Part shown: in pieces, positions 1 to 30,781 of the stretch
How the letters are laid out: every line of letters begins with the position of its first letter
Position numbering within the stretch: the stretch's first letter is position 1
DNA from: Candidatus Magasanikiibacteriota bacterium
GTDB taxonomy: Bacteria > Patescibacteriota > Patescibacteriia > Magasanikbacterales > GWA2-37-8
Length of the DNA: 43,901 bases
Direction of reading: 5' to 3'
Assembly: GCA_963840935.1 (NCBI GenBank)
Contig: CAWJAS010000001.1
Coordinates: forward strand, 1-43,901
The notes under the pieces: generated by a model
What the model was told of the DNA's origin: nothing
Databases searched by the model: none
What the model saw: only the letters and a program-made list of their open reading frames with translations
Position numbers and translations under genes: made by a program

Positions 1-296
1 TTACCCTTATAAAAACATTTGTATGGTTTAGGCTGTTCTCTCTTCGCTCGCCGCTACTAAGGGAATCTCTTCGATTTCTTTCCTCCGGTTACTGAGATGT
101 TTCACTTCACCGGGTTGTCTTTACGCACCTATGTATTCAGTACGCAATATCTCGATTAAATCGAGATGGGTTCCCCCATTGGGAGATTCCGGGTCACGGG
201 TTGCTTGGGACCTCTCCGGAGCTTATCGCACCCTGCAACGTCCTTCTTCGTCTTTTAGTGTCAAGGCATCCACCGTATGCTCTTAATGAAATTGCA
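1..296 (-). rRNA. rrl: 23S rRNA, 5' portion (runs off window start)
   Basis: Reverse complement reads ...TAAGAGCATACGGTGGATGCCTTG...GAAGTGAAACATCTCAGTA...AGTAGCGGCGAGCGAA, conserved 23S domain I motifs; 5' end approximate, by analogy with E. coli. Confidence 0.95.
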
Positions 297-1026: not shown

Positions 1027-1041
1027 ATGCGTGCATGTTTT

Positions 1042-1188
1042 GTGCCGGGGAGAGGACTCGACCTCGGCTCAAATTTTCTTCCGAAAATTTGGCCTAGCCA
1101 CCGCCTCGCGGTTTGTCTCGCCCGCAAGCTCGCCAAACATCGCTCCGGCGTTCTCGTCCTCTCGTAACTAAAACCATTTAGTTACGAG
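1042..1188 (-). repeat. Structured element downstream of tRNA-Leu(TAG), ending in a 20-bp duplicate of the tRNA 3' end
   Basis: gtgccggggagaggactcga at 1042-1061 and 1188-1207; hairpin 1161-1188. Confidence 0.85.
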
Positions 1189-1272
1189 TGCCGGGGAGAG
1201 GACTCGAACCTCCAATCCCTTTCGGGAACATGCTCCTAAGGCATGCGTGTCTACCAATTTCACCACCCCGGC
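1189..1272 (-). tRNA. tRNA-Leu (TAG)
   Basis: GCCGGGG/CCCCGGC acceptor, CATGC-CTTAGGA-GCATG anticodon arm, long variable arm, GTTCGAG T-loop; CCA not encoded. Confidence 0.95.
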
Positions 1273-1358: not shown

Positions 1359-3583
1359 TTATCTACTGCCTCTAAAACCTCCGCCACCTTTACGATCGCC
1401 TCCTCGACCACCACTTCTATTAAACCCGCCTCGGCGTTCCATCGGCGGTTGTTCCACATAGCCTTCCGGTTTTGGCAACAAGGCTTTCATGCTCAAATTA
1501 ACTCTGCCCAAATTATCAATTTCTTTAACCACCACATTTACTTTATCGCCCAAATTTAATACGTCGCTCGGTTTATTTGTGCGCGCCCAAGCAATATCAG
1601 ACACATGAACCAATCCGTCCTGCCCAGGCAATATATTTATAAACGCTCCAAAATCCTCCAAACGAACAACAGTGCCTTCATATTGTTCTCCGGCGGTTAT
1701 TTCGTGAGTAATATCATTAACAATTTTTATCGCCTTCTCGAGCCCAACCGCGTCCGATGAGGTAATATTTACGCGTCCATCCTGTTCAATATCAATAGAT
1801 ACTCCGGTATCGGCAATAATCTTATTAATTATTTTTCCACCCGGACCGATAACATCGCGTATTTTATCCGGATTAATTTGTATCGTCACAATTCGCGGGG
1901 CGTATTTTGAAAGCTCTTTTCTGGGCTCTGACAAAGTTTTACTCATTGCTTCCAAAATCTGGAGTCTCGCTTCGCGCGATTGTTTGAATGTTTGTTCTAC
2001 AATATCCCAATTCAAACCATCAGTTTTGGTATCCATTTGGATTGCTGTAATACCATCGGCAGTGCCGGTAATTTTAAAGTCCATCCCTCCCGGACCGTCT
2101 TCAATATCCTGCAAATCAGTCAATATTTTCCAATTTCCATTGTTGTCACTGGCAAGACCCATGGCAATACCCGCCACCGGTTTTTTTATCGGCACGCCCG
2201 CATCCATTAACGCAAGTGTTGAACCGCAAGTAGAGGCCATTGAGCTTGAACCATTTGAACCCAAAACCTCGGAGACAACGCGAATAGCATAAGGAAAGTC
2301 TATTTCATCGGGCAATACCGGAATCAAAGCGCGTTCGGCCAATGCGCCGTGCCCGATTGCTCTGTTTCCCGGTCCGCGAAGAGGGCCGGTTTCACCATAA
2401 GTAGCCGGAGTATCATTGTAATGATGCATATAACGCTTTGTGCCTTCTTCTTCCATGGAATCAAGTGTTTGTACATCACCCGGCGCACCCAATGTTACGA
2501 CCGAAAGAACTTGCGTGTCTCCACGTTGGAATAGGCCGGTGCCATGCGTGCGTGGCAAAAGGCCAACTTCAGAATTAAGTTCACGAATTTCATTCAATGC
2601 TCGCCCATCCAAACGTTCATTCTTTTCCAAAATTCTTTTAGTAATGAACTCTTCGATATATATTTTTATCCTGCTTAAAATTACAGTGGTAATTTTTTCC
2701 TCAGTTTCCTCTACTGACAATTTTTCTTTTATTGCTTCAACAAACCGTTCAACCATTGCCACTCTTTCCGCCCGGCTCTTTTTGAAGAATCAAAAATCCA
2801 ATCATTTTCGTGGCCAGAAATAAATTCTCTCACCTCTTTTTCTTTCTCCTTTAATTTAATTTCAAGCTCGGTTAAATTATTATGCAAATCGATTTTTTCT
2901 TGTCCGATTTCGGCCTGAATTTTTTTGATAAATTCAAGAACCGAAGCAGATTCCTTGGCGCCAAACTGCATGGCAGAAATCACTTCATTTTCCGGTTCCT
3001 CTTTGACTTCCGCTTCAACCATTATTATTTTGTCCGGGGTGCCCGCTACCACCACATCGAGCGTACCTTTTTCTCGTTCGCTGAAAGTCGGATTTAATAC
3101 AAATTTTCCTTCAACTTTGCCGACACGAACTCCCACAATCGGACCATTCCAGGGAATTGGTGAAATGGCAAGGGCAATAGAAGCGGCAATAAAAGCCGGC
3201 ACTTGTGAATCATTTTCACCATCCCAAGAAAGCGCGGTTAAAATCACCTGAACATCGTTTCGCATTGAACTTTCAAACAACGGCCTGATTGCTCGATCAA
3301 CCATCCTGCCCGATAAAATCGCTTCTTCACTCGGACGACCTTCGCGTTTAATAAAACGACTGCCTTTAATTTTTCCGGCAGCATAAAGTTTTTCCTCAAA
3401 ATTAACCATTAAAGGAAAAAAATCGATTCCTTCACGAGTTTGTTTGCTCATTGTGGCAGTCGCCAAAATGACCGTGTCGCCATATTGCACCACGCACGAA
3501 GCCTGAGTTTGAAGAGCCAGCTTTCCAATTTCCACCGAAAGCTTGCGCCCACCCCACTCCATGGACCAGTTTTTTACGTTCAT
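1359..3583 (-). CDS. pnp: Polyribonucleotide nucleotidyltransferase (PNPase), split by a frameshift near 2779-2783
   Basis: N-part has FFPLMVNFEEK and REGRPSE; C-part has RTHGTGLFQRG, SNGSSSMAS, DFKITG, KH (IGPGGK) and S1 domains. Adding one A to an A5 run joins the two ORFs (SKKSRAERVAM). Confidence 0.93.
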
Positions 3584-3595
3584 ATGTTTCCTTTC

Positions 3596-3658
3596 CGAAA
3601 CTGATCCGCGCACTACAGACGCCTCAAAAAGAGTCTATCTGTCCGCGCACCAGTTTCG
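3596..3658 (-). promoter_or_regulatory. Long imperfect hairpin in the pnp 5' leader
   Basis: CGAAACTGG/TCAGTTTCG, TGCGCG/TGCGCG, ACAGA/TCTGT and CTC/GAG helices immediately before GAAAGGAAAC-ATATG. Confidence 0.65.
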
Positions 3659-5367: not shown

Positions 5368-5898
5368 ATGCGCGAAGGCGATCCTAATGTCGAGCCAAAA
5401 ACAACAACTGACAGCGAGACTCCAGGAAACAATGAACAGCATAAAAAACCAACAAAAGAAGAGTTGGAAATATTGGAGTGCTTCACAAAAGACCATCCCA
5501 AATCGGCCGTTCAGGTGGAAACACGGCGTCATTGCGAGAAAGAAAAAGACCAGTTTCTGCGGATGGTTGATGAATTCATGCATAATAACTCGCTCGAAAG
5601 ACTTAATGCCGTTTTGGATGTATCACCCGCACTTTATGATTTATTGGTCCACTATAAAGGATGGACTGCAGAAAAAATTGAAACTGCGCTAACTAACCTT
5701 ACTCCGGAAGACGCAACAAAATACAAAGACCGATTAACAGCCAACAATGACCTAATACCGATCGTGGCGTTGATGAATAAAATAGAAAAAGAGACAGACA
5801 TTACGCAGGCCGAATTCGCCAAATTGGAGGACGCTTATAAAAAATTGTCTCGTGCTGTCGGCATAATAAACAATAACAAGGTCGACCACACCAGATAA
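5368..5898 (+). CDS. Hypothetical soluble protein, 176 aa
   Basis: Long ATG ORF between two tRNAs; no motif recognised. Confidence 0.7.
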   Translation: MREGDPNVEPKTTTDSETPGNNEQHKKPTKEELEILECFTKDHPKSAVQVETRRHCEKEKDQFLRMVDEFMHNNSLERLNAVLDVSPALYDLLVHYKGWTAEKIETALTNLTPEDATKYKDRLTANNDLIPIVALMNKIEKETDITQAEFAKLEDAYKKLSRAVGIINNNKVDHTR

Positions 5899-5997
5899 AT
5901 GATGATTCGTGGCATATCTTGCAAAGCTTCAAGCATTACGCGTACATCTTGATTTGTACAGCAAATTCTGCTAAAATCAAAAGGTTAAAAATTACAT

Positions 5998-6069
5998 GGC
6001 GGCCATAGTTCAACGGCAGAACACTGGTTTGTGGCACCAGTTACCTGGGTTCAATTCCCAGTGGTCGCC
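5998..6069 (+). tRNA. tRNA-His (GTG)
   Basis: Encoded G-1:C73 pair; CTGGT-TTGTGGC-ACCAG anticodon arm. Confidence 0.95.
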
Positions 6070-6134
6070 CAAAAACGTAAAACTTCTCGCGGTGGTTTAT
6101 AATTCTGCATATTTGTCACCTGATTTGGCAAACT

Positions 6135-7238
6135 ATGAACCAGGTAAAAAAAATTCTATTTGTTTCATGTTCCGCCGGCGCCGGTCACAAAAGAGCGGCG
6201 GATGCTTTGCATTTAACCTGCAAACAATTATACCCGCATATTGATTCGGAACACATTGATATTATTGAATATTCCGATTGGCTAATAAAAAAATCCGTTT
6301 CGTCAGGATATAATCTTTTGGTTAAACACGCTCCGGAATTGTTTGGCCTTTTGTATGACGCCGGAGATTTTTCAAAAACAGCCGAGCTTCTTAACAGCTT
6401 TTCTTTACTTTTAAAAATTAACACTAGACGTCTCAATAAATTCGTGGCGAATTATAATCCGGACATAATAATTTGCACTCATTTTTTGGCTACGGCTTTT
6501 CTAAGAAAATTTGCAGAGCGAATCCCTGTGGATATGCTCATAACGGACTATGAATTAAATAAAATAATGCTTAACCCATCTGTGAGATATTTTTTCGCAC
6601 CAAGCGAAGATATCGTGTCTGATTTGACGCGATATGGAAAAAAATCTTTTGCCACGGGCATTCCTGTTCACCCTGAATTTAAAAAGGAAAAAGATTTGAG
6701 CCTTTCGGCAAAGCATTTTCAATTGAACACAAAAATTCCAACAGTTCTTCTTATGACCGGAGGCGGAGGATTGACCGACTCAAGCAAAATTATGGCTAAC
6801 TTAACAAAAAATATTTCGGACGCGAATATCATTGCCATTTCCGGAAAAAATAATAAAAAATTATTCGACAAGCTCAACAAAGCTCTTCATCCTAATAATT
6901 CATATTCAAATATTATTGAATACACAGACCGAATCGACGAGATCATGAAATTATCGGATGTGATAATAACAAAACCCGGTGGATTAACTGTAACAGAGTG
7001 CCTTTTTTTAAAAAAACCACTATTGCTTATTTCACCTATCCCCGGCCAAGAAAAAGCGAATATAAAATTCGTTGAAAAAAATAATTATGGCCGGCATATT
7101 ACCGACCATAATTTAATCCACATTGAAACAAATAATTTATTAACCGGAAAAAATTCTTTTTCTTCTCCGTCTTTGCCGATTGATTCGTGCGAACAAATAT
7201 TGAAAATATCTCTCGATCTCCCTACTCAAACGGAATAA
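6135..7238 (+). CDS. GT28-family glycosyltransferase (MGDG synthase/UgtP-like)
   Basis: GAGHKRAA, IICTHF, ITDY, TGIPV, ITKPGGLT and PIPGQE motifs. Confidence 0.88.
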   Translation: MNQVKKILFVSCSAGAGHKRAADALHLTCKQLYPHIDSEHIDIIEYSDWLIKKSVSSGYNLLVKHAPELFGLLYDAGDFSKTAELLNSFSLLLKINTRRLNKFVANYNPDIIICTHFLATAFLRKFAERIPVDMLITDYELNKIMLNPSVRYFFAPSEDIVSDLTRYGKKSFATGIPVHPEFKKEKDLSLSAKHFQLNTKIPTVLLMTGGGGLTDSSKIMANLTKNISDANIIAISGKNNKKLFDKLNKALHPNNSYSNIIEYTDRIDEIMKLSDVIITKPGGLTVTECLFLKKPLLLISPIPGQEKANIKFVEKNNYGRHITDHNLIHIETNNLLTGKNSFSSPSLPIDSCEQILKISLDLPTQTE

Positions 7239-18758: not shown

Positions 18759-18840
18759 GGTCCGGTGGTGAAACTGGTATACACGAGGGACTTAAAATCC
18801 CTTGCCGCAAGGCGTGTGGGTTCGATTCCCACCCGGACCA
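18759..18840 (+). tRNA. tRNA-Leu (TAA)
   Basis: GGTCCGG/CCGGACC acceptor; AGGGA-CTTAAAA-TCCCT anticodon arm; long variable arm. Confidence 0.95.
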
Positions 18841-19051
18841 CTATACAAATAGCAGTGCATTTATTGCACTGCTATTTGTATAGTTTGGACGAGGGAATCG
18901 AACGGGCAGAAATGAGGCGCGAGTCTTTTTGGAAAAAAAGACGAGCAAGCCGAATGTCGCCAATATGCCAGTGGCATATTGGCGCTGCCCAGGGCAAGGA
19001 GTCGAGCCGATTGTGGTCGGCGAGACGACGAGTAATTCCCACCCGGACCAC
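18841..19051 (+). repeat. Structured element downstream of tRNA-Leu(TAA), ending in a 17-bp duplicate of the tRNA 3' end
   Basis: attcccacccggaccac at 18825-18841 and 19035-19051; 19-bp perfect hairpin 18841-18883. Confidence 0.85.
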
Positions 19052-30647: not shown

Positions 30648-30674
30648 ATAGTTCAAGTCCAAACCGCAAAAATA

Positions 30675-30707
30675 AAAATACTTCCCAATTATAGGGAAGT
30701 ATTTTTT
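30675..30707. terminator. Bidirectional terminator
   Basis: aaaaatacttccc-aattata-gggaagtattttt between convergent genes. Confidence 0.75.
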
Positions 30708-30708
30708 G

Positions 30709-30781
30709 TTGCGGGGCTAGGACTTGAACCTAGAACCTTCGGGTTATGGGCCCGACGAGCTGCCAGTTGCTCTACCCCGCT
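30709..30781 (-). tRNA. Initiator tRNA-fMet (CAT)
   Basis: Three consecutive G-C pairs in the anticodon stem (TCGGG-CCCATAA-CCCGA); unpaired A1:A72. Confidence 0.92.

Follow-up and report, generated by a model that had tools for sequence, protein, structure and literature searches.

A folded repeat module matched to its own tRNA behind tRNA genes of Patescibacteria, resembling in layout the tRNA-linked repeats of Escherichia coli

What is the short, G+C-rich, non-coding piece of DNA that directly follows a tRNA-Leu(UAG) gene of a Candidatus Magasanikiibacteriota bacterium, ends in a second copy of that tRNA's 3′ end, and carries between the two copies a segment antisense to the tRNA's own T arm? 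The window analysed here is a stretch of 43,901 nucleotides (nt) from contig CAWJAS010000001.1 of assembly GCA_963840935.1; its source genome is called G000, the six genomes of the source genus are G000 to G005, and G023 is a relative from another genus. An original prediction, made from the letters of the window alone, had described this arrangement and seen in it either a conformational switch in tRNA maturation or a non-autonomous element built from its target. The observed layout is real and non-random, and on comparison of the sequences the module is best described as a member of a class of non-coding, strongly folded repeats of about 147 to 200 nt that lie directly 3′ of tRNA genes and correspond in layout to the tRNA-linked repeats (TLRs) of Escherichia coli.

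The module behind tRNA-Leu(UAG)

The features of the locus, in the order in which they are met on the minus strand, are these.

1188-1272, minus strand: tRNA-Leu(UAG) gene (anticodon tag), called by ARAGORN and by Rfam RF00005 (56.8 bits)
1188-1207, minus strand: first repeat copy (direct repeat D1), the last 20 nt of tRNA-Leu(UAG), from T55 to one base past the discriminator
1161-1188, minus strand: hairpin H1, 12 bp with a 4-nt loop, directly 3′ of the tRNA (1161-1172 with 1177-1188, 12/12 paired)
1150-1163, minus strand: antisense T arm GAGAGGACGAGAAC, 12/14 complementary to 1196-1209 (T-loop and T-stem of the tRNA, GTTCGAGTCCTCTC)
1101-1149, minus strand: core domain 1, defined by alignment, with GCCGGAGCGATG, a variable hairpin (loop CTTG in the window copy) and CCGCGAGGCGG (helices 3-5)
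1062-1100, minus strand: core domain 2, with TGGCTAG, a hairpin with a GGAA loop, and CGAGG (helices 6-9)
1042-1061, minus strand: second copy of the tRNA 3′ end (T55 to N73+1), 20/20 identical to D1 and 146 nt from the original
1041-1187, minus strand: whole family-A module, about 147 nt; covariance model R1 scores 155.5 bits (E 6.4e-40), a match that holds by construction because the window copy is among the 14 sequences that built R1

Everything that the original prediction had described at this locus was borne out: the hairpin after the tRNA is perfect; the arm, at 1163-1150, is complementary to the tRNA's own T-loop and T-stem at 12 of 14 positions; the interior is G+C-rich (0.59 in 1051-1200, versus 0.28-0.38 in 751-1050 and 0.31-0.32 in 1251-1400) and measures about 88 nt between the arm and the copied tRNA end; the 20-bp copy lies 146 bp away and lacks one T of GTTC, since it extends as GAGGT-CGAG where the tRNA has GAGGTTCGAG; and there is neither an integrase nor coding capacity, the stretch being crossed only by mechanical open reading frames (ORFs) of 40-50 amino acids, with no gene fragments inside. 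The arm is the complement of tRNA positions 53-56 and 59-66, and a tandem G.A faces R57-A58. Beyond the duplicated end, the start codon of ORF 760-1026 follows on the minus strand after 15 nt.

Known families did not account for the module. A Rfam scan of 950-1350 returned only the tRNA, both at gathering thresholds and at E values up to 10, and the RtT model had no match there; ARAGORN and Rfam report only 1188-1272, so that the module is not called as a cloverleaf. A resemblance of 1138-1151 to the 5′ end of the tRNA (D4) was rejected as chance: all copies begin their core with GCCGGAGCGATG, unchanged from one tRNA to another.

The module recurs at other tRNA genes

The source genome (910 kb, scored 100% complete) has 47 tRNA genes, and 17 of these carry a module, always in the orientation of the tRNA. 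Fifteen were recognized by an exact copy of 15-20 nt of the tRNA's own 3′ end lying 81-193 nt downstream, and two more through the conserved core, namely Pro-ggg and Lys-ttt, where a 22-nt palindrome interrupts the copied tRNA end. Family A, to which the window copy belongs, is found at 14 tRNAs and family B at 2; Val-tac and the first unit at Asn-gtt bear other short module types. A tandem second unit is present at Arg-cct, and tandem units occur also at Pro-tgg of G004. Many copies are of equal length: counted from a point 58 nt ahead of the core up to where the tRNA copy ends, 6 of 13 measured copies come to exactly 167 nt.

Family B has the same architecture around another core (GGGCAG...CTGCCC...GAGTCGAGCCGATTGTGGTCGGC), and one of its two members also lies in the window:

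18759-19051, plus strand: family-B module region behind tRNA-Leu(UAA), the module proper being 18842-19051
18759-18841, plus strand: tRNA-Leu(UAA) gene (anticodon taa)
18840-18884, plus strand: family-B hairpin, 20 bp
18893-18903, plus strand: family-B antisense arm GGGAATCGAAC, 11/11 antisense to the T-loop
19035-19051, plus strand: 17-nt copy of the tRNA-Leu(UAA) end, behind a core of about 130 nt

The second family-B module follows tRNA-Glu(ctc) at G000:C1:636403.

A conserved fold backed by covariation

Aligned family-A copies share H1, a tRNA-specific stretch ending in (T/G)(C/A)GAAC, GCCGGAGCGATG, a variable hairpin and CCGCGAGGCGG, followed in the 3′ half by TGGCYAG, the hairpin with the GGAA loop, CGARRCC, and the tRNA copy from about C56; 45 columns are invariant, and the steps in length between copies are inserted palindromes of 22 and about 14 nt. 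In other copies H1 reads GCGAnnnAAA-loop-TTTnnnTCGC with compensatory changes, and as helix 1 of the alignment it has changes on both sides in 9 of 9 pairs, with 97.9% of cells paired. RNAalifold, run on the 14 copies of G000, predicts 44 pairs, 27 of them compensatory. The R1 model gave 73 matches among the loci examined, which reduce to 70 distinct rows; in these, 92.9% of cells pair, versus 75.0% in shuffles (0/500 as high) and 33-41% when partners are slid, figures that are somewhat favoured by the fitting of the alignment to R1, and 37 of the 44 pairs change on both sides.

The fold is predicted to close on itself at the duplicated tRNA end: the stem part of the arm pairs with the 3′ strand of the duplicated T-stem (helix 2; in the window, within 1042-1061), the UGG of core domain 2 pairs with C56-G57 of the duplicate (its TGGC with these and the final bases of the element), and the six bases that end the arm are left unpaired in a junction. 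The helices contain 136 G.T versus 34 A.C cells (54 versus 30 without two conserved U.G pairs, of which that at pair 181/276, in core domain 2, is present in 49/70 rows) and 122 G.A cells, mostly tandem in one hairpin; the GGAA loop, the CTTG loop and the tandem G.A are all visible in the family-A alignment. The excess of G.T over A.C shows that it is the tRNA-sense strand that folds, as RNA or as single-stranded DNA; the family-A helices are not palindromes bound by protein in double-stranded form.

The 22-nt insert is a perfect palindrome, TCCCAAAGGGATCCCTTTGGGA, which together with its variants is an optional part of cores at Pro-tgg, Leu-gag, Ala-ggc, and Glu-ttc; once, at Lys-ttt (G000:C1:512253-512412), it lies inside the duplicated tRNA end, acting much as a very small independent insertion module would.

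The antisense arm is tailored to the preceding tRNA

The specific part of the arm pairs with the T-loop and T-stem of its own tRNA with a mean predicted energy of -9.3 kcal/mol, compared with -5.8 for random tRNAs of the genome, and the observed value was reached in 0 of 20000 permuted assignments of tRNAs to arms. Transfer RNAs with an identical T-arm, such as Pro-ggg and Asp-gtc, have an identical arm. Among the 40 copies with an adjacent tRNA, the last four bases of the arm are the exact complement of tRNA positions 53-56 in 39, and the single miss is an offset in the tRNA call. Most telling are tRNAs that differ at position 55: both tRNA-Lys genes of G005 (C1 near 163800 and 533600) read GTCC, with C55, and their modules read GGAC; tRNA-Glu(ctc) of the source genome (G000:C1:636330-636402) reads GTGC, with G55, opposite GCAC in its family-B module; and tRNA-Lys(ttt) of G001 (C22 near 61100), which lies outside the 40-copy table, has C55 and by eye the same pairing. 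Since positions 53-55 lie outside the duplicated end, this covariation concerns the real tRNA. These G55 and C55 tRNAs themselves depart from the almost universal U55 of the T-loop.

The real T-arm is not the only partner, however. At Pro-tgg of G001 and Asn-gtt of G005, where the real T-stem has diverged, the duplicate is the better fit for the arm. Over all copies compared the predicted duplex is stronger with the real T-arm in 32/34 cases (mean -16.3 versus -12.5 kcal/mol with the duplicate). Judged by these matches and by the covarying helix 2, pairing with the real T-arm and pairing with the duplicated end are both real possibilities, as the original prediction had surmised.

Two other readings of the segments around the arm were rejected. 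The arm might have been a sense copy of the 5′ strand of the T-stem plus the T-loop, left over from a broken tRNA duplicate, but at the tRNAs with C55 or G55 its loop part proves to be antisense. A general "anti-acceptor" segment before H1 is clear only in Lys-ttt, Asp-gtc, and Lys-ctt, and is not counted as part of the module; its permutation result (4/20000) is driven by those copies and by rows in which the columns tested are the tRNA itself, and the element-free tRNA-Met also has a terminator stem that includes the tRNA end. In that case (window 30650-30781, minus strand) the terminator hairpin contains the last 5 nt of the tRNA (CCGCA...TGCGG), and tRNA ends can therefore belong to terminator stems in this genome.

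Distribution, empty sites, and exchange

The window copy finds relatives by BLAST in 13 of 41 related genomes, comprising 5/5 of the same genus, 12/24 in the same family, and 0/16 outside that family but within the order. R1 detects 16, 10, 10, 2, 9, and 8 copies in the six genomes of the genus; 44 of the 52 strongest matches have a tRNA of the same strand just upstream, representing 21 tRNA species, and the remaining eight comprise two tandem second units, two modules behind a broken tRNA-Asn, one parted from its tRNA-Asp by a large insertion, and three that are unexplained. The broken tRNA-Asn genes precede intact modules at G002:C5 near 255300 and G005:C1 near 522050, one having suffered an internal deletion and the other retaining its 3′ half only. 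In an even sample of the phylum, family A is present in 7 of 151 genomes, from 6 families. A 16-mer search of contigs yielded at least 119 loci, of which 80 were run through R1, giving 20 true matches in 18 loci, most of those 80 being chance matches in GC-rich genomes; true copies occur in records titled Candidatus Magasanikbacteria, Kuenenbacteria, Komeilibacteria, Adlerbacteria, and Parcubacteria. In viral contigs the exact 16-mer was found at 39 loci, none of which matches R1.

Occupancy varies between close relatives. The Leu-tag site is occupied only in G000 and G005, the module of G005 being 79% identical to that of the window while the flanks no longer align; Ala-tgc is occupied in G002 to G005 and not in G000; and Leu-gag carries a module in G000 and G001, the match in G003 and G005 ending at the tRNA end, as does a separate 89-nt piece that covers the tRNA in G002. 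In G023 only 40 nt separate tRNA-Leu(tag) from a homologue of ORF 760-1026 (29% identity, E 1e-11), and no module stands between them, which makes this a syntenic empty site. The original prediction had suggested scanning further tRNAs and genomes, building a covariance model of the interior, and looking for empty alleles; the architecture proved to recur at many tRNAs and in many genomes, the model (R1) is backed by covariation, and the empty site of G023 shows no remnant of an island.

The cores cluster neither by tRNA nor cleanly by genome. At Ala-tgc of G004 the core is that of the neighbouring Pro-tgg module and H1 is that of the orthologues in G003 and G005, a mosaic which indicates that cores are exchanged while the tRNA-specific flanks stay in place. 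The extent of the duplication also varies, for at Lys-ctt and Arg-cct of G000, Lys-ctt of G004, Pro-cgg of G003 and G001, and the tRNA-Gln gene of G002 it runs through the tRNA terminator to H1. Five copies have small insertions in the duplicated end, all of them placed immediately behind GAATCC, and in three copies a shared element sequence, AACGAAGTGAG.., lies right behind the real tRNA.

One locus outside the window departs from this pattern: in L101, a 230-amino-acid ORF (5457-6149, plus strand) with a LAGLIDADG-like motif, seen by eye, lies between a tRNA-Glu gene and a family-A module lacking H1, and the duplicated end differs from the acceptor arm of the upstream tRNA-Glu.

Candidate enzymes and transcription

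The recombination genes of G000 are one reverse transcriptase, one full tyrosine recombinase and one fragment (C1:146922), and one large and one truncated serine recombinase; IS110 (PF01548) and TnpB (PF07282) have no match in this genome, and the Nop family was not found there either. No recombinase could be tied to any copy examined, and no autonomous form of the module was found. Elements with a large serine recombinase do insert at tRNA genes of these genomes, whose tRNA flanks are hot spots for mobile elements, and one of them was seen next to a module:

L216, G002:C4:63700-71300: 6.6-kb element at the tip of tRNA-Asp, where the 19-nt repeats enclose a 6.87-kb segment

It encodes a large serine recombinase (497 amino acids), a rolling-circle Rep protein (REP_ORF2-G2P), an N6/N4 methylase, and an endonuclease of the MvaI/BcnI type. 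Both of its junctions share CCCGCAAA and lie at the tRNA tip, upstream of the terminator and the module, and it was rejected as the parent of the module, whose ends it does not share. Because its junctions differ and the Asp module of G002 is orthologous to that of G000, with the same downstream flank, we regard it as a separate, later insertion.

Transcription was judged from assembled contigs of two metatranscriptome runs. Contigs from relatives, 88-95% alike, cover the core (1048-1160) at a depth of 2-10, compared with hundreds for tRNA-like sequence, which gives a weak hint that the module is transcribed, weak because DNA carry-over is possible in RNA libraries. Two contig joints skip 128 nt; they rest on 21 repeat letters and are indistinguishable from the plain tRNA of a relative.

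Likeness to the tRNA-linked repeats of E. coli

A published account of the E. coli TLRs (PMC8144298) counts 22 units at ten loci, describes them as known since 1978 without an accepted origin or function, and reports that three units in rrn operons are transcribed by read-through of a terminator, processed, and bound by Hfq and CsrA, their function being otherwise unknown. For comparison we read the four units of tyrT/tyrV and that of rrnB. All four tyrT/tyrV units carry GGGGAAGG(A/G)TGAGAA(C/G), antisense to the tRNA-Tyr T-arm, followed by about 95 nt of G+C-rich sequence and then by the last 19 nt of the tRNA; the arm is 86% antisense to tRNA-Tyr over 22 nt, is antisense to the unit's own 3′ copy at 10/10 positions, and places a tandem G.A opposite R57-A58. 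The 178-bp repeats of tyrT/tyrV, with the RttR/rtT RNA, we take to be Rfam family RtT, presumably accession RF00391; the units that follow 5S rRNA are rrA, rrB, and rrF. The rrnB unit, which lies between terminators T1 and T2, keeps a tRNA-type GGATTTGAAC even though the gene preceding it is that of 5S rRNA, and its 3′ copy is derived from 5S, trailer included, which suggests that the direct copy was made from the target and the antisense arm inherited from a donor. The two rrnB terminators (L203, 4171756-4172057) start alike, CAAATAAAACGAAAGGC versus CAAATTAAGCAGAAGGC, as expected if T2 arose with the rrB-repeat duplication.

The likeness to the modules of Patescibacteria is thus one of layout: i) each follows immediately on a tRNA (or 5S) gene and has the orientation of that gene; ii) the final 18-20 nt of each repeat the gene's 3′ end from the T-loop onwards (for E. 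coli, according to PMC8144298 and to the units read here); iii) both form tandem units and can sit between two related terminators; and iv) the arms of tyrT and of the Patescibacteria modules share the motif ..TGAGAAC. They differ in the extra hairpin H1 and the different core of the Patescibacteria modules, and in occupancy, 17 of 47 tRNA genes here versus the 22 units at 10 loci given for E. coli in PMC8144298. No significant homology was detected between the two, the best R1 match at the E. coli loci having an E value of 0.045 and being out of register, and we therefore file the module as working like a TLR rather than as a member of the RtT family. Our literature search, which left the papers of 1978-1999 outside its coverage, found no statement of an antisense arm in the E. 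coli TLRs, nor, with older subscription papers mostly outside its coverage, any description of such modules in Patescibacteria.

What the module may be

The explanation that we prefer, tentatively and with a little less than even confidence, is that the module is a TLR-like, non-autonomous repeat residing in the tRNA trailer, which folds away a spare tRNA end and spreads or is exchanged by homology among tRNA loci. Transcription from the tRNA promoter would run on through the module and include it in the 3′ trailer; the self-contained fold of the module would hide the spare tRNA end, preventing it from competing with the real 3′ half, and would give the RNA a tRNA-like end that can be trimmed; and the module would be a passenger, selfish but tamed, that lacks its own enzyme. 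New copies would arise rarely, laid down behind a tRNA with a matching T-arm through homology-guided recombination or template switching; the insertion would duplicate the target from the T-loop to the point of insertion, the direct copy coming from the target and the antisense arm from the donor; and resident copies would be homogenised by gene conversion.

Several observations weigh against this explanation: i) in 7 of 15 G000 copies a terminator-like hairpin and T run, identified by eye, stand between the tRNA and the module, so that read-through would be needed; ii) the metatranscriptome contigs come from relatives, at the low depth given above and with possible DNA carry-over; iii) a harmless passenger does not obviously account for the tight conservation of unpaired core bases, nor for the upkeep of the arm's match to positions 53-56 of the real tRNA; iv) the birth mechanism is drawn from anatomy, and leaves H1 unaccounted for; v) patchy spread, tandem units, and insertions at a fixed point would suit an enzyme-driven, site-specific element just as well; and vi) homology to the E. 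coli repeats could not be demonstrated by searches with Rfam RtT or R1.

The fifth of these points leads to the strongest competitor, unlikely as we think it, an active non-autonomous mini-element resembling a cis-mobilizable element (CIME) or a miniature inverted-repeat transposable element (MITE), at which a recombinase acting in trans would cross over in the T-loop or T-stem while the element supplies a replacement tRNA 3′ end. The arm and the direct copy would together form the recombination site and would work as a folded strand resembling the target, or else as a guide that recognises the intact target across the crossover point. CIMEs are att-flanked derivatives of integrative elements that lack an integrase, and P4-like integrases use tRNA sites of the T-loop class; as in these, the module is bounded by direct repeats running from the T-loop to the end of the tRNA, which would serve as attL and attR, the tRNA is left intact, tandem arrays form, and empty sites are clean. 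Species-variable occupancy and a patchy distribution in the phylum agree with such an element, as do AACGAAGTGAG.. behind the real tRNA of three copies, which fits a 3′ end brought by the element, the complementarity of the arm to both sides of the repeat boundary (positions 53-56 and 59-65), the independent small insertions at one point of the duplicated end, the strand-specific folding, and the large serine recombinase elements that hit tRNA genes in these genomes. Unlike a CIME, however, the module has no cognate autonomous element or integrase that we could find, its interior is folded and conserved rather than decayed cargo, and it contains an antisense copy of its target; its duplication varies in length and can span a whole terminator, which is unusual for a site-specific crossover. 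Nor did any copy examined come with a recombinase: the element with a large serine recombinase and Rep at tRNA-Asp of G002 is inserted elsewhere and has ends other than those of the module, a single full tyrosine and a single full serine recombinase stand against modules at 17 tRNA genes (and 21 tRNA species genus-wide), IS110, TnpB, and Nop are absent, and 0 of the 39 viral contig loci with the 16-mer is a true copy.

Two kinds of known system give this competitor more precise form. The attC sites of integrons and the attP(+) site of CTX phage are recombination sites made of a folded single strand, the attC order being R''(RYYYAAC)...R'(GTTRRRY). The module resembles them in that inverted and direct target-like copies pair within one strand, the fold is specific to one strand with conserved mismatches, and the tandems are cassette-like; but its inverted motifs run inside-out relative to attC (GTTC...GAAC, not ..AAC...GTT..), no integron-type integrase lies nearby, the fragment at C1:146922 being the only trace, and the modules sit at tRNA genes rather than in an array led by attI. 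The bridge RNA of IS110, the exon-binding sites of group II introns, and the omega RNA of TnpB are guide segments of mobile elements; like them, the module has a segment, the arm, that is complementary to the intact target on both sides of the insertion boundary, and it ends 3′ in a sense copy of that target, whereas lengths and layout differ and the partner enzymes are absent from the complete genome of G000.

That the arm is a working guide, reading the T-loop of its own tRNA across the start of the duplication, in DNA or in the precursor RNA, so as to serve either a programmable, enzyme-poor form of homing or a tRNA-specific maturation switch, and that the same principle operates in the E. 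coli TLRs, seems to us quite unlikely.

Quite unlikely, too, is the first of the roles put forward in the original prediction, a cis-acting RNA switch that serves the host by gating or timing the maturation of the tRNA it follows: the arm would pair either with the real T-arm, blocking the cloverleaf and processing, or with the duplicate, leaving the tRNA free. Such a switch would have the three segments of an attenuator, the arm as segment 2 pairing with the real T-arm (1) or the duplicate (3), and the two predicted pairings are indeed mutually exclusive, differ in mean energy as given above, and both covary, the first at position 55 of the real tRNA and the second in helix 2. The orthologous Leu-tag module has been kept in two species whose flanks no longer align, and the same layout recurs in the E. 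coli repeats within tRNA and rRNA transcripts. In having neither a sensed signal nor a terminator made by one or the other pairing, nor any sign of regulation, the module differs from an attenuator. About one tRNA in three is occupied and no more, in sets that differ between sister species, and 144 of the 151 sampled Patescibacteria have no match, so that the module is dispensable; 7 of the 15 modules of G000 are preceded by the terminator-like hairpin and T run; and no effect on maturation is known, the E. coli repeats being stated (PMC8144298) to have no known function apart from the binding of CsrA and Hfq by the rrn units.

Finally, the decayed att scar of a large integrase-bearing island or prophage at a tRNA gene is scarcely credible, and in its ordinary form effectively refuted, since, although direct repeats of a tRNA 3′ end are its classic signature and mobile elements concentrate beside tRNA genes in these genomes, the interior belongs to a set of more than 70 conserved copies with compensatory changes, many of them equal in length, it holds no gene fragments, its arm is tailored to the preceding tRNA, and at the empty site of G023 the tRNA is directly followed by the same downstream gene; the original prediction had rightly held such a scar to be insufficient.

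We wish to stress what would follow from these readings. The modules form a second large TLR-like set, with dozens of copies, 21 tRNA species, and several candidate phyla, and their covariation-backed fold, together with a simple rule (antisense T-arm, folded core, direct 3′ end), makes the old question of the TLRs testable by comparison and mutation. In practical terms they account for many apparent "att scars" at tRNA genes of small-genome bacteria, which should not be scored as remnants of prophages or islands. If the arm were a guide or a switch, it would represent a new way for a gene-less element or an RNA to address individual tRNAs, and the mechanism would be common to bacteria from Proteobacteria through Patescibacteria.

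Other features of the window

Two further features flank the tRNA-Leu(UAG) locus. The window opens inside a 23S rRNA gene, of which the 5′ end is present (1-296, minus strand, 201 bits). A gene resembling that of polynucleotide phosphorylase (1359-3613, minus strand) is split into the overlapping ORFs 2729-3613 and 1359-2762, perhaps reflecting a frameshift, a sequencing error, or a split gene.

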